A DNA stretch of 64,000 nt, from NCBI RefSeq assembly GCF_030384885.1, contig NZ_CP128613.1; one strand, written 5' to 3'. A program made the translations under genes and the position numbers. The notes below the pieces were generated by a model. It was not told where the DNA came from. It made no database searches and saw nothing but the letters and a program-made list of their open reading frames with translations. Of the stretch, positions 19,540-52,496 are shown one piece after another (positions within the stretch are counted from its first letter, which is position 1; the number at the start of each line of letters is the position of its first letter). The DNA comes from Escherichia coli. Lineage in GTDB: Bacteria > Pseudomonadota > Gammaproteobacteria > Enterobacterales > Enterobacteriaceae.

Positions 19540-20742
19540 ATGCAAAGTGTTGATGTAGCCATTGTTGGCGGCGGCATGGTGGGGCTGGCGGTTGCCTGCG
19601 GCTTGCAGGGCAGTGGCTTACGCGTTGCCGTACTGGAGCAGCGCGTACCGGAACCCCTGGCGGCGGATGCACCACCACAACTGCGCGTTTCGGCTATCAA
19701 TGCCGCCAGCGAAAAATTACTCACCCGTCTTGGCGTCTGGCAGGAGATCCTCTCCCGCAGGGCCAGTTGCTATCACGGCATGGAAGTGTGGGACAAAGAC
19801 AGTTTTGGTCACATTTCGTTTGACGATCAAAGCATGGGCTATAGCCATCTTGGGCATATCGTTGAAAATTCAGTCATTCACTACGCGCTGTGGAACAAAG
19901 CACAGCAGTCCTCAGATATCAGCCTGCTAGCCCCTGCAGAATTACAGCAAGTCGCCTGGGGAGAGAACGAAACCTTCCTGACGCTGAAAGACGGCAGCAT
20001 GTTAACGGCGCGTCTGGTAATTGGCGCAGACGGCGCTAATTCCTGGTTGCGCAACAAAGCCGATATTCCGCTGACTTTCTGGGATTATCAGCATCACGCG
20101 CTGGTGGCGACCATTCGCACGGAAGAACCGCATGATGCGGTGGCGCGACAGGTTTTCCATGGCGAAGGCATTCTGGCCTTTTTGCCGCTTAGCGATCCGC
20201 ATCTTTGCTCAATTGTCTGGTCACTGTCGCCAGAGGAAGCACAGCGGATGCAGCAGGCAGGCGAAGACGAATTTAACCGCGAGTTAAATATCGCTTTTGA
20301 TAATCGCCTGGGCTTATGCAAGGTTGAGAGTGAACGCCTGGTGTTCCCGCTGACTGGGCGTTATGCGCGCCAGTTTGCCGCGCACCGTCTGGCGCTGGTG
20401 GGCGACGCCGCGCATACCATTCACCCGTTGGCGGGGCAGGGGGTGAATCTCGGCTTTATGGATGCTGCAGAGCTGATTGCTGAACTGAAACGGTTGCATC
20501 GTCAGGGTAAAGACATCGGGCAGTACATTTACCTGCGTCGCTATGAGCGTAGCCGCAAGCACAGTGCGGCGCTGATGCTGGCAGGTATGCAGGGATTCCG
20601 CGATCTGTTTTCCGGGGCTCATCCGGCGAAAAAACTGCTGCGTGATATTGGCCTGAAACTGGCCGACACGCTTCCTGGCGTTAAACCACAACTTATCCGT
20701 CAGGCAATAGGATTAAACGATTTGCCTGAATGGCTGCGCTAA
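19540..20742 (+). CDS. ubiI: 2-octaprenylphenol hydroxylase UbiI (VisC, 400 aa)
   Basis: UbiH paralog with FAD-binding VAIVGGGMVGLAVACGL; position downstream of ubiH. Confidence 0.93.
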   Translation: MQSVDVAIVGGGMVGLAVACGLQGSGLRVAVLEQRVPEPLAADAPPQLRVSAINAASEKLLTRLGVWQEILSRRASCYHGMEVWDKDSFGHISFDDQSMGYSHLGHIVENSVIHYALWNKAQQSSDISLLAPAELQQVAWGENETFLTLKDGSMLTARLVIGADGANSWLRNKADIPLTFWDYQHHALVATIRTEEPHDAVARQVFHGEGILAFLPLSDPHLCSIVWSLSPEEAQRMQQAGEDEFNRELNIAFDNRLGLCKVESERLVFPLTGRYARQFAAHRLALVGDAAHTIHPLAGQGVNLGFMDAAELIAELKRLHRQGKDIGQYIYLRRYERSRKHSAALMLAGMQGFRDLFSGAHPAKKLLRDIGLKLADTLPGVKPQLIRQAIGLNDLPEWLR

Positions 20743-20784
20743 AAATTTCTCTTCTGCTGTTTATTTGATACCCATCACACTTTC

Positions 20785-20815
20785 ATCTCCCGGTTTTTTC
20801 GCCGGGAGATTTTCC
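20785..20815 (+). terminator. Rho-independent terminator after ubiI
   Basis: ATCTCCCGG TTTTTTCG CCGGGAGAT hairpin followed by TTTTCC. Confidence 0.75.
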
Positions 20816-21189
20816 TCATTTGAAATAAACTAATTTCACCTCCGTTTTCGCATTATATTTTCTAATGTTACGAATTTTTGATTTAGTGTTTTTTGACATT
20901 TTTTCAGTTCTTAATATTGTCTTATTCAAATTAAGTTTCTCATCACATCATCTTTGTATAGAAAGTGGAATGTTTTTTGGTTTTTTATTCTGTTGCTATT
21001 CTGGCGTTTTTTAACCATAAGCTAATGTGATGATCAATTTTACCTTATGGTTAACAGTCTGTTTCGGTGGTAAGTTCAGGGAAAAGAGAACGATTGCGTT
21101 GGGGACCGGGAGTGGCTCCGATGCTGGGTTTCGTGGTGATAATTTCACCATGAAAAAGTTGTCAGCCCCGCTTATTCAATGAGGACAAG
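20816..21189 (+). promoter_or_regulatory. gcvT promoter/control region (AT-rich)
   Basis: About 370 bp AT-rich untranslated region upstream of gcvT; from established knowledge this is the GcvA/Lrp/PurR/CRP-controlled gcv promoter. Individual sites not mapped here. Confidence 0.5.
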
Positions 21190-22284
21190 ATGGCACAACA
21201 GACTCCTTTGTACGAACAACACACGCTTTGCGGCGCCCGCATGGTGGATTTCCACGGCTGGATGATGCCGCTGCATTACGGTTCGCAAATCGACGAACAT
21301 CATGCGGTACGTACCGATGCCGGAATGTTTGATGTGTCACATATGACCATCGTCGATCTTCGCGGCAGTCGCACCCGGGAGTTTCTGCGTTATCTGCTGG
21401 CGAACGATGTGGCGAAGCTCACCAAAAGCGGCAAAGCCCTCTACTCGGGGATGTTGAATGCCTCTGGCGGTGTGATAGATGACCTCATCGTCTACTACTT
21501 TACTGAAGATTTCTTCCGCCTCGTTGTTAACTCCGCCACCCGCGAAAAAGACCTCTCCTGGATTACCCAACACGCTGAACCCTTCGGTATCGAAATTACC
21601 GTTCGTGATGACCTCTCCATGATTGCCGTACAAGGGCCGAATGCGCAGGCAAAAGCTGCCACACTGTTTAATGATGCTCAGCGTCAGGCGGTGGAAGGGA
21701 TGAAACCCTTCTTTGGCGTGCAGGCGGGCGATCTGTTTATTGCCACCACCGGTTATACCGGTGAAGCGGGCTACGAAATTGCGCTGCCCAATGAAAAAGC
21801 GGCGGATTTCTGGCGAGCGCTGGTGGAAGCGGGCGTTAAGCCCTGCGGTCTGGGCGCGCGTGACACGCTGCGTCTGGAAGCGGGTATGAATCTTTATGGT
21901 CAGGAGATGGACGAAACCATTTCTCCTTTAGCAGCCAACATGGGCTGGACCATCGCCTGGGAACCGACTGATCGTGACTTTATCGGTCGTGAAGCTCTGG
22001 AAGCGCAGCGTGAACATGGCACAGAAAAACTGGTTGGTCTGGTGATGACCGAAAAAGGCGTGCTGCGTAATGAACTGCCGGTACGTTTTACCGATGCGCA
22101 GGGCAATCAGCATGAAGGCATTATCACCAGCGGTACTTTCTCCCCGACGTTGGGTTACAGCATTGCGCTGGCACGCGTGCCGGAAGGTATTGGCGAAACG
22201 GCGATTGTGCAAATTCGCAACCGTGAAATGCCAGTAAAAGTGACGAAACCTGTTTTTGTGCGTAACGGCAAAGCCGTCGCGTGA
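21190..22284 (+). CDS. gcvT: Glycine cleavage system T protein, aminomethyltransferase (364 aa)
   Basis: Begins [41 protein letters not shown]. Confidence 0.96.
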
Positions 22285-22307
22285 TTTACTTTTTTGGAGA
22301 TTAATTG

Positions 22308-22697
22308 ATGAGCAACGTACCAGCAGAACTGAAATACAGCAAAGAACACGAATGGCTGCGTAAAGAAGCCGACGGCACTTACACTGTTGGCATCACTGAG
22401 CACGCTCAGGAGCTGTTAGGCGATATGGTGTTTGTTGACCTGCCGGAAGTGGGCGCAACGGTAAGCGCGGGCGATGACTGCGCGGTTGCCGAATCGGTAA
22501 AAGCGGCGTCAGACATTTATGCGCCAGTAAGCGGTGAAATCGTGGCGGTAAACGACGCACTGAGCGATTCTCCGGAACTGGTGAACAGCGAACCGTATGC
22601 AGGCGGCTGGATCTTCAAAATCAAAGCCAGCGATGAAAGCGAACTGGAATCACTGCTGGATGCGACCGCATACGAAGCATTGTTAGAAGACGAGTAA
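22308..22697 (+). CDS. gcvH: Glycine cleavage system H protein (lipoyl carrier, 129 aa)
   Basis: Begins [19 protein letters not shown]; lipoyl-lysine motif in ...[16 protein letters not shown]... Confidence 0.95.
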
Positions 22698-22815
22698 CGG
22701 CTTTATTCCTCTTCTGCGGAAGAGGATTAGGGTGAGGAACATTTACGCCTCACCCTCACTCTCTTCGCAAGGAGAGAGGTTCACAATTCACTGCACGTTT
22801 CAGGAACCATCGCTC

Positions 22816-25689
22816 ATGACACAGACGTTAAGCCAGCTTGAAAACAGCGGCGCTTTTATTGAACGCCATATCGGACCGGACGCCGCGCAACAGCAAGAAA
22901 TGCTGAATGCCGTTGGCGCACAATCGTTAAACGCGCTGACCGGCCAGATTGTGCCGAAAGATATTCAGCTTGCGACACCACCGCAGGTTGGCGCACCGGC
23001 GACCGAATACGCCGCGCTGGCAGAACTCAAGGCTATTGCCAGTCGCAATAAACGCTTCACGTCTTACATCGGCATGGGTTACACCGCCGTGCAGCTACCG
23101 CCGGTTATCCTGCGTAACATGCTGGAAAATCCGGGCTGGTATACCGCGTATACTCCGTATCAACCTGAAGTCTCCCAGGGCCGGCTTGAAGCACTGCTTA
23201 ACTTCCAGCAGGTAACGCTGGATTTGACCGGGCTGGATATGGCCTCTGCTTCTTTGTTGGATGAAGCCACCGCTGCCGCCGAAGCAATGGCGATGGCAAA
23301 ACGCGTCAGTAAACTGAAAAATGCCAACCGCTTCTTCGTTGCTTCTGACGTGCATCCGCAAACCTTAGATGTAGTACGTACACGCGCAGAAACCTTTGGT
23401 TTTGAAGTGATTGTCGACGATGCGCAAAAAGTTCTCGATCACCAGGACGTCTTCGGTGTGCTGTTACAGCAGGTTGGCACTACCGGTGAAATTCACGACT
23501 ACACTGCGCTTATCAGCGAACTGAAATCACGCAAAATTGTAGTCAGCGTCGCCGCCGATATTATGGCGCTGGTGCTGTTAACTGCACCGGGTAAACAGGG
23601 CGCGGATATTGTCTTTGGTTCGGCGCAACGCTTTGGCGTACCGATGGGCTACGGTGGCCCACATGCGGCATTCTTTGCGGCGAAAGATGAATACAAACGC
23701 TCAATGCCGGGCCGTATTATCGGTGTATCGAAAGATGCAGCTGGCAATACCGCTCTGCGCATGGCGATGCAGACTCGCGAGCAACATATTCGCCGTGAGA
23801 AAGCGAACTCCAATATTTGTACTTCCCAGGTACTGCTGGCAAACATCGCCAGTCTGTATGCCGTTTATCACGGTCCGGTTGGCCTGAAACGTATCGCTAA
23901 CCGCATCCACCGTCTGACCGATATCCTGGCGGCGGGCCTGCAACAAAAAGGTCTGAAGCTGCGCCATGCGCACTATTTCGATACTTTGTGTGTGGAAGTG
24001 GCCGACAAAGCGGGCGTGCTGGCGCGTGCCGAAGCGGCTGAAATCAACCTGCGTAGCGATATTCTGAATGCGGTTGGGATCACCCTTGATGAAACCACCA
24101 CGCGCGAAAACGTGATGCAGCTTTTCAGCGTACTGCTGGGCGATAATCACGGACTGGACATCGACACGCTGGACAAAGACGTGGCTCACGACAGCCGTTC
24201 TATTCAGCCTGCAATGCTGCGCGATGACGAAATTCTCACCCATCCGGTGTTTAATCGCTACCACAGCGAAACCGAAATGATGCGCTATATGCACTCGCTG
24301 GAGCGTAAAGATCTGGCGCTGAATCAGGCTATGATCCCGCTGGGTTCCTGCACCATGAAACTGAACGCCGCCGCCGAGATGATCCCAATCACCTGGCCGG
24401 AATTTGCCGAACTGCACCCGTTCTGCCCGCCGGAACAGGCCGAAGGTTATCAGCAGATGATCGCGCAACTGGCTGACTGGCTGGTGAAACTGACCGGTTA
24501 CGACGCCGTCTGTATGCAGCCGAACTCTGGCGCTCAGGGCGAATACGCGGGGCTGCTGGCGATTCGTCATTATCATGAAAGCCGCAACGAAGGGCATCGC
24601 GATATCTGCCTGATCCCGGCTTCTGCGCATGGCACTAACCCGGCTTCCGCGCATATGGCAGGAATGCAGGTGGTGGTTGTGGCGTGTGATAAAAACGGCA
24701 ACATCGATCTGACTGACCTGCGCGTGAAAGCGGAACAGGCGGGCGATAATCTCTCCTGCATTATGGTGACCTATCCTTCCACCCACGGCGTGTATGAAGA
24801 AACGATCCGTGAAGTGTGTGAAATCGTGCATCAGTTCGGCGGTCAGGTTTACCTTGATGGTGCGAACATGAACGCCCAGGTTGGCATCACTTCGCCGGGC
24901 TTTATTGGCGCGGACGTTTCGCACCTTAACCTGCATAAAACTTTCTGCATTCCGCACGGCGGTGGTGGTCCGGGTATGGGACCGATCGGCGTGAAAGCGC
25001 ATTTGGCACCGTTTGTTCCGGGTCATAGCGTGGTGCAAATCGAAGGCATGTTAACCCGTCAGGGCGCGGTTTCTGCAGCACCGTTCGGTAGCGCTTCTAT
25101 TCTGCCAATTAGCTGGATGTACATCCGCATGATGGGCGCAGAAGGGCTGAAAAAAGCAAGCCAGGTGGCAATCCTCAACGCCAACTATATTGCCAGCCGC
25201 CTGCAGGATGCTTTCCCGGTGCTGTATACCGGTCGCGACGGTCGCGTGGCGCATGAATGTATTCTCGATATTCGCCCGTTGAAAGAAGAAACCGGCATCA
25301 GCGAGCTGGATATTGCCAAGCGCCTGATCGACTATGGTTTCCACGCGCCGACTATGTCGTTCCCGGTGGCGGGTACGCTGATGGTTGAACCGACTGAATC
25401 TGAAAGCAAAGTGGAACTGGATCGTTTTATCGATGCGATGCTGTCTATCCGCGCAGAAATCGACCAGGTGAAAGCCGGTGTTTGGCCGCTGGAAGATAAC
25501 CCGCTGGTGAACGCGCCGCACATTCAGAGCGAACTGGTCGCCGAGTGGGCGCATCCGTACAGCCGTGAAGTTGCAGTATTCCCGGCAGGCGTGGCAGACA
25601 AATACTGGCCAACAGTGAAACGTCTGGATGATGTTTACGGCGACCGTAACCTGTTCTGCTCCTGCGTACCGATTAGCGAATACCAGTAA
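22816..25689 (+). CDS. gcvP: Glycine dehydrogenase (decarboxylating), P protein (957 aa)
   Basis: Begins [30 protein letters not shown]; PLP-dependent; the track's start at 22732 is an upstream extension. Confidence 0.95.
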
Positions 25690-25711
25690 TTTACTGATTC
25701 GACTATCTTCT

Positions 25712-25738
25712 AAAGGCGCTTTGGCGCCTTTATTTTTG
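25712..25738 (+). terminator. Rho-independent terminator after gcvP
   Basis: AAAGGCGC TTTG GCGCCTTT hairpin followed by ATTTTTG. Confidence 0.8.
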
Positions 25739-25748
25739 GGGAAAACAA

Positions 25749-26492
25749 ATGGCTATAGCACTTGTGACGGGTGGCAGTCGTGGCATCGGGCGAGCAACGG
25801 CGTTACTGTTGGCGCAAGAAGGATATACGGTGGCGGTTAATTATCAGCAAAACCGCCACGCAGCGCAGGAAGTTGTGAACTTAATAACTGAAGCAGGTGG
25901 CAAAGCGTTTGCGCTCCAGGCGGATATCAGTGACGAAAACCAGGTGGTGGTGATGTTTGCGGCAATCGACCAGCGCGATGAACCGCTAGCCGCACTGGTC
26001 AATAACGCAGGAATTTTGTTTACCCAATGCTCAGTGGAAAATCTCACCGCAGAGCGAATCAACCGGGTACTTTCCACCAATGTGACGGGATATTTTCTTT
26101 GTTGCCGCGAGGCGGTAAAACGCATGGCGCTTAAAAATGGCGGTAATGGCGGTGCTATCGTCAACGTCTCTTCAGTAGCCTCACGGCTGGGATCTCCGGG
26201 GGAATACGTTGATTATGCGGCCTCGAAAGGGGCGATTGATACGTTAACCACAGGGCTGTCGCTGGAAGTCGCCGCGCAGGGGATCCGCGTTAACGGCGTG
26301 CGGCCAGGGTTTATTTATACCGAAATGCACGCCAGCGGTGGCGAACCTGGACGCGTTGATCGCGTTAAGTCGAACATCCCCATGCAGCGTGGCGGACAGG
26401 CGGAAGAGGTCGCGCAGACCATCGTCTGGCTGTTAAGTGATAAAGCCTCTTATGTCACGGGAAGTTTTATCGATTTGGCGGGTGGAAAATAA
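25749..26492 (+). CDS. ygfF: Short-chain dehydrogenase/reductase YgfF (247 aa)
   Basis: SDR glycine-rich motif TGGSRGIG and catalytic YxxxK (YAASK). Confidence 0.88.
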   Translation: MAIALVTGGSRGIGRATALLLAQEGYTVAVNYQQNRHAAQEVVNLITEAGGKAFALQADISDENQVVVMFAAIDQRDEPLAALVNNAGILFTQCSVENLTAERINRVLSTNVTGYFLCCREAVKRMALKNGGNGGAIVNVSSVASRLGSPGEYVDYAASKGAIDTLTTGLSLEVAAQGIRVNGVRPGFIYTEMHASGGEPGRVDRVKSNIPMQRGGQAEEVAQTIVWLLSDKASYVTGSFIDLAGGK

Positions 26493-47470: not shown

Positions 47471-50341
47471 TTATATTTTTTCCAGCGCGGTGAGTATTTT
47501 CTCCGGTGTGAAATGCCATTCGCGTAACCAGATGCCGCAGGCATCGTGAATTGCGGTAGCAATCGCCGGAGCTGCGCCATTTACACCGATTTCTGAGATT
47601 GATTTCGCCCCGAATGGGCCGACTTTATCGTCGCTCGGCACCAGCACAGCGCGGAAATCACGCGGAATGTCACCAATTTTCGGTGCGCCGTAACTGCGTA
47701 AATCACGCGTTAACGGGTGGCCTTCGGCGTCATAAATGATTTCTTCGCTCATACTGTGCCCGATAGCACGCAGGGTGGCTCCGTAGATTTGTCCCAACGC
47801 TAACTCTGGATTGACCGGTGTACCACAGTCCAGCAAGGCATAGAATTTATCCAGGCGGATTTCACCCGTACGTGTGTTGACGGCAACTTCAGCAAAGTTT
47901 GCGCCATACGGGAAGGCGAAATCAGGCGTGATATAACTGGCAGTTCCCACCAGTGAACCAAAACCGGTGCCGGTTTCGCCTTTATGGGCAATATCCCCGA
48001 AACTAACTTCGCCTTTCTTGCCGCGCACGACGCCCGGCGTTGCCAGTTGAACATCCTCCAGGGGTTCCCCCAGCATTTGTGCACCGTGGAACAGGATTTT
48101 CTCTCGGAGGTTTTCTGCCGCCATACGCGCCGCGTTGCCGGAGAAACATGTACCGGACGAGGCATATGCGCCTTTATCAAACAGCGCATGATCGGTATCA
48201 CCGGAGATAACATGCACGTCCTGCGGTGGGCAGTGCAGCACTTCTGCTGCCAGTTTCGTCACCACGGTATCCAGACCAGTACCAATATCCGCACCGCCAG
48301 AATGAACGATAAAGGTACCGTCTGATTCCAGTTTGATCATGCAGTTAGCCTGATCGATATCCGGGATCCCTGATTTCTGCATGATAATGGCGACGCCACG
48401 ACCGATGTGCCAGTCACCGTTTTGTGGTTTTGGTGAAGACCATTGGATCATCTCGCGACCCTGACGCAGGATCTCTTCCAGTGCGCAGCTGGCGGCGGAA
48501 GGAACGGAGGTCGGCGCTTTACCTTCACCGATTGCACCGAGAATTTTCAGCTCTTGCCCTTCGTGTACCCGGTTACGTTCGATAATTTCCAGTTGGTCGA
48601 TCTGTAACTGTTCAGCCAGTTCCGCTAATGCCATGGTGATAGCGAAGTTACCTTTCGGTGCGCCATAACCCTGATAAGCACCATTTGGGCAAATGTTGCT
48701 GTAGTAGGTGGTGACCTGGAAATCGACGTTATCGCACGGATATAACGGCAGCGACAGCGCCGGTCCGTTACACGGTACGGTGAGTGAGTGGTTGCCGTAA
48801 GGGCCTGTGTTGGCGCGGAAATCCATCTTCACAGCCGTCAGGCGACCATCTTTCTTTGCCCCCAGTTTGACGGTGACTTTCGCGACGTGACGGGAGGTGT
48901 TAGCAATAAACTCTTCTTCACGGGTGTAGCGGAACAGTACCGGACGCCCGGTCACGCAGGTTGCCCAAGCGCACACTTCTTCCAGCAGGATGTCCTGTTT
49001 AGACCCAAAACCGCCGCCAACTCGCTCTTTAATGACATGAACTTTATGTTGTTTCATGCCCACGAGGCGCGCGACCTGGCGGCGTAAGTGCCATGGTACC
49101 TGGGTGGAGGCGTGGATAACCAGACGATCGCCGTCCATACGGGTAAAGCAGATATGAGTTTCAGTCGGGCACTGCTGCGCCTGAGTTGAGTTATAGGTTC
49201 GCTCAATGATCACATCGGCATCGGCAAAGCCTTTATCCATATCGCCAATATGACCATGAATACTGGCGGCGATATTTTTACGAGGGCGAGAACCGATAGG
49301 GAAGTTGATAATCATATGCTCGCCGCGCTGGGCTGCATGGCTGTTATCGTCTTCCAGAGTGTCTGGCGCACCCGCCACATACACCACCGGTTCATCGTGT
49401 ACGACAGGCGCATCTTCCGCCATTGCTTCGTCGATCGACATTACAGGTTTAAGCACTTCATATTCAACGTCGATGAGCTTCAGTGCTTCGAGCGCAATTT
49501 CTTCACTTTCTGCGACGACCGCAGCAACGCGATCGCCGACGTGACGCATTTTCTTGCCGAACATACGGCGGTCAAGCGGTGACGGTTCCGGTGCGCTCTG
49601 ACCACCCGGGGTATAGTAGATATCCGGGCAATTCAGGTGAGTAATAACGTGAACGACGCCCGGTAAGGCTTCAGCTTTGCTGACATCCAGATGAGTAATC
49701 AGTGCGTGAGCGTGTGGGCTACGTAACATTTTAATGACGCAGGCGTCAGCCGTTACGCGGTCTTCAACATAGCAGGGTTTCGCCTGCACCATTTTTGCGG
49801 CATCAGTTTTAGGATAATGCTTACCAATGACTTCAAGGTCATCGCGGAAAGTCGGAGCGATATCAATGGTGGCCTGCGGGTTATTTTTACGTGCAATTGC
49901 CAGTTCAACGACCTGATAGTATTGTTGCCAGCCTGCATCGCGACTGAACAAACCAGAAAGCGCGTCGTCGATCTCTTCGCGGGTCGGTGCGGCGATACGC
50001 TCGAGCAGATCAGTGATAATCAGAGCCGCAGCTGGATCGTTATAACCAGACTGCACCACGCCAACATCAACCATGGCCTGTTGAACCAGACTTAACTCAT
50101 TCCATTTGCCCAGAGATTCTGCGGTACGAATATCTGCCTTCTCTAACTGTGCGGCAATAAGCAAGGACGCGTTAACGATATTACCGTTAAAGATTATTGC
50201 GTCAGAACCGGCAAACCCGAAGCCATCATCACTGTTGCGTACAGAGTGCATTCCCATGTTAAACAACAGCTTTTGCACGTTTTCGCCTGGATTAACGGTT
50301 AGCTCCTGAGGCGCGCCATTTAAAGTAAAGTGGATGATCAT
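47471..50341 (-). CDS. xdhD: Molybdopterin-binding xanthine-dehydrogenase-family hydroxylase XdhD (956 aa)
   Basis: N-terminal 2Fe-2S-like region plus aldehyde-oxidase/xanthine-dehydrogenase Mo-binding domains; ATGA overlap with ygfM. Confidence 0.9.
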   Translation of the reverse strand: MIIHFTLNGAPQELTVNPGENVQKLLFNMGMHSVRNSDDGFGFAGSDAIIFNGNIVNASLLIAAQLEKADIRTAESLGKWNELSLVQQAMVDVGVVQSGYNDPAAALIITDLLERIAAPTREEIDDALSGLFSRDAGWQQYYQVVELAIARKNNPQATIDIAPTFRDDLEVIGKHYPKTDAAKMVQAKPCYVEDRVTADACVIKMLRSPHAHALITHLDVSKAEALPGVVHVITHLNCPDIYYTPGGQSAPEPSPLDRRMFGKKMRHVGDRVAAVVAESEEIALEALKLIDVEYEVLKPVMSIDEAMAEDAPVVHDEPVVYVAGAPDTLEDDNSHAAQRGEHMIINFPIGSRPRKNIAASIHGHIGDMDKGFADADVIIERTYNSTQAQQCPTETHICFTRMDGDRLVIHASTQVPWHLRRQVARLVGMKQHKVHVIKERVGGGFGSKQDILLEEVCAWATCVTGRPVLFRYTREEEFIANTSRHVAKVTVKLGAKKDGRLTAVKMDFRANTGPYGNHSLTVPCNGPALSLPLYPCDNVDFQVTTYYSNICPNGAYQGYGAPKGNFAITMALAELAEQLQIDQLEIIERNRVHEGQELKILGAIGEGKAPTSVPSAASCALEEILRQGREMIQWSSPKPQNGDWHIGRGVAIIMQKSGIPDIDQANCMIKLESDGTFIVHSGGADIGTGLDTVVTKLAAEVLHCPPQDVHVISGDTDHALFDKGAYASSGTCFSGNAARMAAENLREKILFHGAQMLGEPLEDVQLATPGVVRGKKGEVSFGDIAHKGETGTGFGSLVGTASYITPDFAFPYGANFAEVAVNTRTGEIRLDKFYALLDCGTPVNPELALGQIYGATLRAIGHSMSEEIIYDAEGHPLTRDLRSYGAPKIGDIPRDFRAVLVPSDDKVGPFGAKSISEIGVNGAAPAIATAIHDACGIWLREWHFTPEKILTALEKI

Positions 50342-51117
50342 ACGGCTTCCTCCCCAGCCTGTTGGCAGTCGGCATAAAGGTCGGCTACCAGAACTCCCGT
50401 GATATAGCGTTTATAGGCCACGCTGCCCCGCAAATCTTCCTGCGGGAAAATGGCGTTGGCGACAGCCTGTTCAAGGGCATCGCCTTCCAGGTTTTGTTTT
50501 TCAACATCGTGCAGACGCAGTGCTTTACTGGCCACGCCATCCAACGCAATTCGCATACCGTCGTGATCGGTTAACGCAACGGCTGCCGTTACTACCGTTA
50601 ACCCAGCCTGAGAACGGCTAATTTTGCGAGTCGCACAGGTGCGATACGGATCTTTAATGATGATTTCGGTTAGCAGGCGATCGCATGGGCAGGCCAGGTA
50701 CTCCTCAATTGACAGAGTTTCACCGTTGCCAAAAACCAGTTCGGCATCCAGTGCCAGCAGGACGGGAAGCAGCACCGACTCTTCCTGCCGGGCGGCGATT
50801 TCACCACCAATGGTCGACTGATTACGAATATGGCGAGAGTAGACAAAGCCGAGAGCCTCACGCAGTGCTGCAGGAATAAACCGTGCATCACGCAGTGTTT
50901 GCAAGCGAGACATCGCGCCAATCCGCAATGCACCGTTATCCCAGTCAACCCAGTCCAGTTCCAGATCCTGTAAGGATATGGCAATCTTTTTATCGGTACG
51001 GGTTGGTGTGGCGTTGAGTTTACTGCCTCCGGCGAACCAGACGGCTTCATCCTGGTAGCGGCGCTTCAGTTCCAGCGCCTGTTCGACAGAGTCGGGCCTG
51101 AAAAATTGTTCAATCAT
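50338..51117 (-). CDS. ygfM: FAD-binding subunit of a molybdo-hydroxylase, YgfM (259 aa)
   Basis: CO-dehydrogenase/XdhB-type FAD-binding domain; operon position. Confidence 0.88.
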   Translation of the reverse strand: MIEQFFRPDSVEQALELKRRYQDEAVWFAGGSKLNATPTRTDKKIAISLQDLELDWVDWDNGALRIGAMSRLQTLRDARFIPAALREALGFVYSRHIRNQSTIGGEIAARQEESVLLPVLLALDAELVFGNGETLSIEEYLACPCDRLLTEIIIKDPYRTCATRKISRSQAGLTVVTAAVALTDHDGMRIALDGVASKALRLHDVEKQNLEGDALEQAVANAIFPQEDLRGSVAYKRYITGVLVADLYADCQQAGEEAV

Positions 51118-51167
51118 CTTCTTTCCTTATTTAACCCTCTTCCCTGCGGGAAGAGGGTATTTGTCAT

Positions 51168-52496
51168 TTATGCCAGCGCATCCATCCGACGCCACATAGC
51201 AGCGGCGGCTTTTTGGGCTTGCGCATAAATGGAATCGCAATCGAAGTTAAACTGACGGTCTTCATAGACCATAACGCCGTTGACCATCACGCTGTGGACG
51301 CTGCCTGAACCCATGCCGAAAGCGATATGTCCAGCGATATTGTCTGCCAGCAGTGGCGTCGGCGAGTTGTAATCGCAAATGGTTAAATCGGCTTTATAAC
51401 CGGTTTCCAGCAGGCCAAATTTCGCGCCAAAGTTGCGGCTCATCAGTTCGTTGCCGTTAGACAGAGCTTTGGCAAAGCTGTCAGGCCACAGCGGACCACC
51501 CGCATCGCGATGTTTAAAGAAGGCAAATTTCATCTCTTCAAACATATCTGAACCAATACCGTCCGTACCCAACGCCAGATTGCGGATGTCGCAAAGATGA
51601 TGGTTGTAGCCGACATGGTTGTTCATGTTTGAACGGGCGTTATGCACCAGGAATGCATCACGCTGATTGAGCAACGCGATGTCGTCTTTAGACAGATAAA
51701 GCCCATGAGCGACCAGCGTTTTGCTGTCGATGAGATCGAATTGCGCTAATCGTGCCAGCAGATCTTTGCCGTACCAGTGATGACTATGGGAAACATCGTA
51801 AAGGTCTTCCGCAGCGTGAATATGTAAACCACGGCCTGTGGCTTTCACGGCCTCACGCAGCATTTCCAGACCGGCATCCGGCACAGTAAACGGCGCGTGA
51901 GCACCAATATGAGCTTCTACCAGATACGGTTCAGTTGCCGCTTTCTTCGCATCATCAATCTGACGGGCGAAGCGGATATTTTCCTCTACTCCTTCCTGTA
52001 GTTCTTTAATGCCGTTGTTACGGTCAGTGGTTTCAAAACAGGTCATCGCACGCAAGCCAACTTTTAAAAATGCGTTGCGCAATGTGGAGAGCGACCCGCT
52101 GATATACGCCGGAGAGGCATGGTGATCGATAACAGATGTACAGCCGCTCTTAATCGCTTCCAGTGAACAAATCAGCCCGCTGTAATAGAGCGACTCTTCA
52201 TCAAGGGCGCGATCGAGCCGCCACCAGAGATTTTTCAGCGTTGAAATGAAATCCGGGCAGGGGGCGATGTTTGCCATAATTCCACGGGAAAGCCCCGAGT
52301 AAAAATGGTTGTGCGAGCAGACAATTCCCGGCATCACAATCCGACCATGCATCTCTTTGTAGTTGGCATCGGGGTAGCGTTGCGTCAGCGCATCGCCGAT
52401 AGCGACAATCACATCATTTTCGATGGCGATATCAACGCCTTCCTGCACTTTCGCCGGGTGTAACTGCACTGCGGTGACATTCTTCAGAATCAACAT
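51168..52496 (-). CDS. ssnA: Putative aminohydrolase SsnA (chlorohydrolase/cytosine-deaminase-like, 442 aa)
   Basis: Amidohydrolase metal-binding motif (GIVCSHNHFYS...) and fold. Confidence 0.88.
   Translation of the reverse strand: MLILKNVTAVQLHPAKVQEGVDIAIENDVIVAIGDALTQRYPDANYKEMHGRIVMPGIVCSHNHFYSGLSRGIMANIAPCPDFISTLKNLWWRLDRALDEESLYYSGLICSLEAIKSGCTSVIDHHASPAYISGSLSTLRNAFLKVGLRAMTCFETTDRNNGIKELQEGVEENIRFARQIDDAKKAATEPYLVEAHIGAHAPFTVPDAGLEMLREAVKATGRGLHIHAAEDLYDVSHSHHWYGKDLLARLAQFDLIDSKTLVAHGLYLSKDDIALLNQRDAFLVHNARSNMNNHVGYNHHLCDIRNLALGTDGIGSDMFEEMKFAFFKHRDAGGPLWPDSFAKALSNGNELMSRNFGAKFGLLETGYKADLTICDYNSPTPLLADNIAGHIAFGMGSGSVHSVMVNGVMVYEDRQFNFDCDSIYAQAQKAAAAMWRRMDALA

Follow-up and report, generated by a model that had tools for sequence, protein, structure and literature searches.

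In the malE-malF operon of Escherichia coli, an intercistronic palindromic repeat of the REP/BIME type blocks 3'-5' exonucleases and raises the level of the upstream cistron (Newbury 1987). Protective 3' structures were catalogued by Dar & Sorek (2018; PMC5927463), whose tables contain the exact gcvH/gcvP site that is the subject of this paper. The site is an anonymous hairpin in that work; the hairpins 1 and 3 described below, the palindrome and the repeat family are unmentioned, and site-specific mutagenesis was not part of the study. According to its S3 and S6 Tables, gcvH and gcvP form a differentially decaying pair with stabilisation of the first gene: the half-life ratio is 2.21±0.02, the steady-state mRNA ratio 5.03±1.33, and the independent Moffitt data give a ratio of 1.42. 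The same slot of the same operon in Dickeya dadantii contains an internal terminator that yields more gcvTH than gcvP message (Forquet 2022; PMC9239193). The Dickeya site is a canonical GC hairpin followed by a U-tract, with a termination probability estimated at 71% (PMC9239193), whereas E. coli has no U-tract, and the published reading of the E. coli gcvH/gcvP difference is decay as opposed to termination.

A second body of literature concerns the BoxC repeats, later named PIT and then TMECO (Bergler 1992; Bachellier 1999; Hoyne 2000; Holder et al. 2015, PMC4666352). E. coli K-12 has 23 copies, five as inverted pairs, and the TMECO consensus reads CCCTCNCCC-N3-6-GGGNGAGGG-N3-GGGNGAGGG (Holder et al. 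2015, PMC4666352). As far as the earlier assays of Hoyne and Maher are relayed by Holder et al. (2015, PMC4666352), the elements have no terminator or promoter activity, and RNA polymerase and reverse transcriptase are unaffected by them. The family has had no accepted function since 1992, and no RNA-level function has been assigned to it.

This paper describes the gcvH-gcvP spacer in an E. coli window, by which we mean the whole stretch of 64,000 nucleotides that was analysed. The stabilisation of the gcvTH message is already known and is documented in two public datasets; the addition made here is a modest one, consisting of the repeat-family origin of the hairpins and the picture of an interchangeable hairpin slot.

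The operon is encoded on the + strand in the order gcvT (21190-22284), gcvH (22308-22697, 129 aa; the stabilised upstream cistron) and gcvP (22816-25689, 957 aa; the less stable downstream cistron). The gcvH assignment is based on the open reading frame, its translation and the RefSeq annotation of identical DNA, and that of gcvP on the open reading frame, the RefSeq annotation and the conserved N-terminus MTQTLSQLE. With gcvH ending at 22697 and the gcvP ATG at 22816, the spacer therefore comprises 22698-22815 (118 nt), and both the gene assignment and the spacer length of the initial annotation agree with the RefSeq gcvH and gcvP on either side. An in-frame GTG at 22732 was considered as an alternative gcvP start and rejected, as it lies inside hairpin 2 and lacks a Shine-Dalgarno sequence; moreover, the region is swapped in other genera while the MTQTLSQLE N-terminus is unchanged. 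Over a stretch of 301 nt around the feature, several complete E. coli genomes are 100% identical to the window, and 5425 of 5426 have an identity of at least 95%. The K-12 RefSeq annotation lists no repeat or RNA feature inside the gcvH-gcvP spacer, and an Rfam 15 covariance-model scan of 20500-26000 at E-values up to 1 returned no match.

Three inverted repeats had been proposed in the spacer, and these are present exactly as placed, at 22708-22725, at 22730-22737 with 22748-22755, and at 22759-22778; each of them, as RNA, is predicted to fold into a stable hairpin. Hairpin 1 (22707-22726, + strand) pairs 22707-22714 with 22719-22726 in 8 bp around the loop UGCG (-13.2 kcal/mol, z -4.4). Hairpin 2 (22729-22756, + strand) pairs 22729-22737 with 22748-22756 in 9 bp around a 10-nt loop (-15.6 kcal/mol, z -4.8), and hairpin 3 (22759-22778, + strand) pairs 22759-22766 with 22771-22778 in 8 bp around the loop GCAA (-12.2 kcal/mol, z -3.7). 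Folded as one element, 22698-22782 reaches -40.9 kcal/mol (z -5.8), which none of 200 dinucleotide shuffles equalled; the three-hairpin feature is real and well beyond chance. The hairpins are not independent of each other, however, as they belong to a single imperfect palindrome whose 29-nt arms (22709-22737 and 22748-22776) are 76% complementary. In an alternative fold, hairpin 2 forms the tip of one long hairpin; this fold lies 0.1-2.2 kcal/mol from the three-hairpin fold, depending on the allele, and hairpin 2 is the constant feature of both.

The position at which the message ends in vivo has been mapped in two laboratories. In the S6 Table of Dar & Sorek (PMC5927463), the term-seq 3' end lies at BW25113 3042456, after ...GGGTGAGGAAAATTTATGCCTCACCCTCACT, and hairpin 2, with a listed fold energy of -15.7 kcal/mol, is the protective structure. 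Adams et al. (2021; PMC7815308, Supplementary file 1) place a 3' end at MG1655 3049097(-), with three entries in that file, which covers three growth conditions; two of the entries score 412219 and 171112, versus 36065 for the gcvP terminator. On conversion of the coordinates (MG1655 3049159 equals window 22698, with the listing format calibrated on the entry for the gcvP terminator), both positions correspond to window 22760 on the + strand, so that the published data from two laboratories and two K-12 strains give the identical 3'-end nucleotide. This dominant in vivo end follows the stem of hairpin 2 by 4 nt and falls within the 5' arm of hairpin 3. In two Adams listings (PMC7815308), 3049097 is the sole curated 3' end between 3048758 and 3050602, and none is recorded after hairpin 3. 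The differential stabilisation of the gcvTH message that had been suggested from the hairpins is supported by the published half-life and mRNA ratios (2.21 and 5.03) and by a 3' end directly after hairpin 2.

For the class of sites to which this one belongs, Dar & Sorek report the lack of a U-tract and no significant bicyclomycin-sensitive (Rho-dependent) termination, and they read such hairpins as barriers to 3'-5' exonucleases like the malE-malF REP (PMC5927463). The table of Rho termination regions of Adams et al. (PMC7815308) contains no gcv gene name. A scan for terminator and sigma-70 promoter consensus sequences, which recovered the true terminator of gcvP (25711-25732), found no site in 22698-22815; neither a canonical terminator in the spacer nor an internal promoter for gcvP is therefore supported. 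The site has properties of a protective stem-loop, i.e., a stable stem that is not followed by a U-tract, a 3' end a few nucleotides downstream, and an upstream segment that is longer-lived and more abundant, and the GC-rich hairpin with subsequent U-run of an intrinsic terminator is not found in the spacer. The SMRT-Cappable-seq supplements of Yan (2018) contain no gcv entries. Literature searches for a role of an sRNA, Hfq or RNase E at E. coli gcvH retrieved nothing relevant, and those for site-directed experiments retrieved none on any gcvH-gcvP hairpin.

Three further - strand ends of Adams et al. (2021; PMC7815308) lie within the operon, at 3050723 in the gcvT 5' leader, at 3050602, 65 nt into gcvT, and at 3048758, 283 nt into gcvP; if the genomes are collinear, they correspond to approximately 21134, 21255 and 23099 of the window. 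These ends hint at additional premature termination or processing in the gcv operon.

The arrangement of the three hairpins looks like that of a degenerate inverted BoxC pair, although the sequence similarity from which we infer this ancestry is modest. BoxC-like element A (22707-22738, + strand) consists of TCCTCTTC, the loop TGCG, GAAGAGGA, the loop TTA and GGGTGAGGA, and BoxC-like element B (22748-22779, - strand, read from 22779 to 22748) reads CCTCTCTCC-TTGC-GAAGAGAG-TGA-GGGTGAGG. Both are eroded, and they face each other across AACATTTACG. Hairpin 1 corresponds to the Watson-Crick hairpin of element A and hairpin 3 to that of element B on the mRNA strand, while hairpin 2 arises from pairing between the third block of each element (GGGUGAGG and CCUCACCC).

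The spacer shares with BoxC the three-block layout, in which one pyrimidine block is followed by two purine blocks, as well as the TTA-type second loop, an intergenic position, and the inverted-pair architecture in which two elements face each other over a short spacer, as at the five K-12 loci; the short central AACA...ATTTAC spacer is that of the K-12 pairs #7+8, #10+11 and #12+13. The K-12 pair that is located just downstream of gcvP has the same layout and also carries AACA...ATTTAC in its central spacer. The gcvH-gcvP element differs from canonical BoxC in that erosion has left T/A in place of the CCC and GGG ends, so that it does not conform to the published consensus, and in that its central spacer is approximately 19 nt shorter. 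By hand count, element A deviates from the TMECO consensus at 6 of the 26 specified bases in the window allele and at 5 in K-12. The strict consensus is not matched: its two purine blocks are found with 3 mismatches, for which 0.34 occurrences are expected by chance in the window, and a single-element TMECO profile search of the window gave only a weak match (E=0.24). A composite profile made from four K-12 BoxC inverted pairs, however, matches 22714-22778 on both strands (E=1.1e-4 and 2.1e-4 in 64 kb; approximately 0.009 when scaled to the whole genome), with the next-best match in the window at E=0.23. The two-block motif GGAGAGG-N4-GGGTGAGG is present on each of the two strands, with 2 matches versus 0.06 expected. 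In a blastn search of 5426 E. coli genomes the spacer is single-copy and finds only itself, so that, as it now stands, it is unlikely to be an active dispersed repeat; judged by its sequence, it is best described as a diverged BoxC relic and not as an active copy. The tables of Holder et al. (PMC4666352), which list the 23 K-12 copies, include the gcvP-ygfF pair and do not include the gcvH-gcvP spacer.

To place the spacer in an evolutionary context, 80 gcvH loci from different species were fetched and their gcvH-gcvP spacers extracted. Since hairpin 3 fell out of register when these palindromic and indel-rich spacers were aligned with MAFFT, the sequences were folded one by one. Strong folding is widespread: 67 of the 74 spacers from other species that are at least 40 nt long have z below -2 relative to shuffles (median -4.1), and the only five spacers that lack a hairpin are 8-23 nt long and belong to Erwinia and Rosenbergiella. 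The sequences that occupy the slot are diverse. Canonical BoxC pairs, collinear and with the same boundaries, are found in Enterobacter cloacae (locus L017, 50 bits), E. asburiae (L033, 49 bits), Pseudocitrobacter (L025, 52 bits) and Buttiauxella (L036, 57 bits). Intermediate or eroded forms occur in Siccibacter (intermediate, as judged by eye), in two further enterobacterial genomes and in a second Escherichia species, and single BoxC hairpins in Cedecea, Phytobacter and others. REP/BIME sequences fill the slot in Citrobacter, Lelliottia and some Enterobacter, ERIC sequences in some Citrobacter and Kluyvera, and a classic GC hairpin with a T-run in Photorhabdus, Serratia, Yersinia, Providencia and Dickeya. 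In Salmonella, of which the GcvH protein is identical to that of E. coli, the spacer consists of a 162-nt REP pair, and a 3' end after the REP hairpin and an mRNA ratio of 2.64 have been reported (Dar & Sorek 2018; PMC5927463). The malE-malF REP differs from the E. coli gcvH-gcvP element in repeat family and sequence, but a pair of REP elements is just what Salmonella has at this position.

One of the Escherichia spacers deserves separate mention. A separate Escherichia species-representative entry (locus L011, 1091-1203) has the same eroded BoxC pair in its spacer; at minimum energy the spacer folds into a single perfect hairpin of 18 bp (GGGAGAGTTAGGGTGAGG with CCTCACCCTAACTCTCTC), not three hairpins, and its hairpin 1 can instead close on a UUCG tetraloop.

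Within E. coli, the window allele is rare, with identical sequences in approximately 20 genomes. Six alleles were distinguished by seven polymorphic sites. Four of these, all that hairpin 2 contains, fall in its loop; the hairpin 3 loop and the linker have one each. The seventh, A22720G, is carried by the common E. coli allele and is located in the stem of hairpin 1, where it changes a U-A into a U.G pair and keeps the pairing. The bias towards unpaired sites within the 72-nt element has a binomial p of approximately 0.005 in this small sample, and DNA-level correction of the palindrome could yield the same pattern. A structural variant was encountered in E. coli VTB96775v (locus L005), which has a 52-nt tandem duplication of the module formed by hairpins 2 and 3 (columns 51-102 of the spacer alignment) and, with a variant hairpin 3 (CTCTCTCCTTACGAAGAGAG), a five-hairpin spacer.

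Taken together, the spacer is probably a decayed BoxC pair that is transcribed within the gcvTHP mRNA, and of which hairpin 2 would serve as the exonuclease barrier that leaves a stable gcvT-gcvH message. In the transcript, the elements' own arms would form hairpins 1 and 3, and the facing third blocks hairpin 2. We infer an initiating endonuclease cut of the polycistronic RNA somewhere downstream, after which 3'-to-5' exonucleases, presumed here as to their identity, would trim the RNA back and stall a few nucleotides after hairpin 2, where the 3' end is observed in vivo and where neither a U-tract nor a recorded Rho site is present. The product would be a gcvT-gcvH message ending in ...CCUCACCCUCACU, to which the measured lifetime of approximately 2 times and level of approximately 5 times those of the gcvP part would be attributable. 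In this way the message amounts for the T and H proteins would be uncoupled from that for the large P protein, by the same mechanism as that of the REP stabiliser between malE and malF. The causal role assigned to hairpin 2 is based on correlative evidence. Some points weigh against this reading, among them the modest similarity to BoxC and the negative results of the earlier assays of PIT/BoxC elements relayed by Holder et al. (2015, PMC4666352). The two genes differ more in steady-state mRNA (5.0) than in half-life (2.2), and the approximately 2.3-fold that is left over counts against decay alone; partial termination or polarity may therefore contribute. In stability, hairpin 3 comes close to hairpin 2; although it is the more downstream of the two, no 3' end is recorded after it, which a simple model of trimming back to the first barrier does not explain. 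Finally, the conservation of the stems in the palindrome can stem from DNA-level template switching instead of selection on the RNA.

The leftover difference in mRNA level is also the point from which a different explanation can be argued, namely that hairpin 2 is a weak non-canonical terminator or pause site at which part of the RNA polymerases stop after gcvH, an explanation that we consider unlikely as a replacement for exonuclease protection. It has a precedent in Dickeya dadantii, where the internal site after gcvH stops approximately 71% of the transcripts (Forquet 2022; PMC9239193). The GC hairpins with T-run in the slot of Photorhabdus, Serratia, Yersinia, Providencia and Dickeya point in the same direction, and the ratios of 5.0 and 2.2 leave room for an approximately 2.3-fold difference in synthesis. 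However, the sequence that follows hairpin 2 in E. coli (UCACUCUCUUCG) is not a U-tract, and the consensus scan of the spacer is empty. Ends generated by terminators are usually located approximately 7-9 nt from the stem, and the distance of only 4 nt that is observed here is a better fit to trimmed ends. Moreover, operons with terminator motifs or with substantial known Rho-dependent termination had been dropped beforehand by Dar & Sorek (PMC5927463), and PIT/BoxC elements had no terminator activity in the earlier assays, as far as these are relayed by Holder et al. (2015, PMC4666352).

Less likely still is that the pair is a selfish or neutral relic, or that it acts at the level of the DNA through an intrastrand triplex or local instability, and that the RNA 3' end is an unselected by-product. 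BoxC/TMECO loci have been reported as rearrangement hot spots, with which the 52-nt tandem duplication in one strain at the gcvH-gcvP locus is consistent, as is the canonical BoxC pair downstream of gcvP that is present in K-12 and absent from the window strain. In addition, when blocks 2 and 3 are read by hand in the canonical purine-motif register, 7 allowed triplets follow one another in the K-12 allele, versus 5 plus 1 in the allele of the window. Against these points, nearly every sampled lineage keeps a strong hairpin in the slot though the sequence family changes, Salmonella conserves the differential expression with an unrelated hairpin, the polymorphism avoids the stems, and the canonical elements showed no stable triplex in vivo. 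Exonuclease protection by a transcribed hairpin accordingly remains the preferred reading of the spacer.

The translation initiation region of gcvP (22781-22815, + strand), with the Shine-Dalgarno sequence AGGA at 22802-22805, is located outside the hairpins, and 22780-22840 is predicted to be unstructured (z +1.06). Immediately upstream of the gcvP ATG, approximately 35 nt (in most genera ...GATTCACTGCACGTTTCAGGAACCATCGCTC) hardly vary in Enterobacteriaceae even where the rest of the spacer is replaced, and the conservation of 22781-22815 exceeds the need of a Shine-Dalgarno sequence alone. According to the initial annotation, the third hairpin overlapped the gcvP ribosome-binding region and could modulate gcvP translation; control of translation by hairpins that mask or expose this site, an idea probably prompted by the resemblance of the 3' arm of hairpin 3 (GGAGAGAGG) to a Shine-Dalgarno sequence, is highly improbable and close to refuted by geometry, since the ribosome-binding site had been misplaced: the end of hairpin 3, at 22778, is 23 nt before the true AGGA and 37 nt before the ATG, the hairpin arms pair only with each other in the minimum free energy fold and not with the predicted unstructured initiation region, and this region is unchanged in species that carry REP or ERIC sequences in place of the hairpins.

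Two other places in and around the window bear on the distribution of BoxC sequences. The gcvP-ygfF intergenic region is 59 nt long in the window strain (25690-25748) and 266 nt in K-12 (locus L001, 403-668, - strand), where it holds the canonical BoxC inverted pair TMECO #10+11, i.e., a presence/absence polymorphism of approximately 200 nt right after the gcvP terminator. Elsewhere in the window, on the - strand, 51118-51167 is a 50-nt spacer between two same-strand open reading frames (51168-52496 and 50338-51117), which we take to be ssnA and ygfM on the basis of their sizes and the gene order. It contains a hairpin at 51133-51158 (- strand) with a perfect 10-bp stem and BoxC-like arms (ACCCTCTTCC-CTGC-GGAAGAGGGT), which is the second-best match of both BoxC profiles in the window and may be another candidate intercistronic barrier.

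REP elements have known protein partners, and BoxC is not known to have any. Ends that follow BoxC hairpins are also found elsewhere in K-12: Supplementary file 1 of Adams et al. (2021; PMC7815308) lists 3781065(+), 3959467(-) and 847200(-), at 3-5 nt after the Watson-Crick hairpins of TMECO #17 after lldD, of TMECO #20, and of a degenerate copy at around 847.2 kb, in which GGATTAGGGTGAGG of the window's gcv spacer recurs. Though few copies were examined, these ends may hint at a general property of the family. A broader proposal, which is possible but which we hold only tentatively, is that transcribed BoxC elements generally act as REP-like 3'-end barriers, that the gcv spacer has been domesticated for the ratio of T and H to P, and that the slot is, throughout the Enterobacterales, an interchangeable cassette for BoxC, REP, ERIC or terminator sequences.

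The glycine cleavage system needs unequal amounts of the T, H and P proteins, and the spacer splits one transcript into two message pools. From an evolutionary point of view, the barrier appears to have been made from a worn-out repeat family to which no RNA-level function had been assigned. As the slot is taken up in related bacteria by entirely different palindromic repeats, or by terminators, selection would seem to act on the presence of a strong hairpin rather than on its sequence, and dispersed repeats may constitute a ready supply of such hairpin parts.
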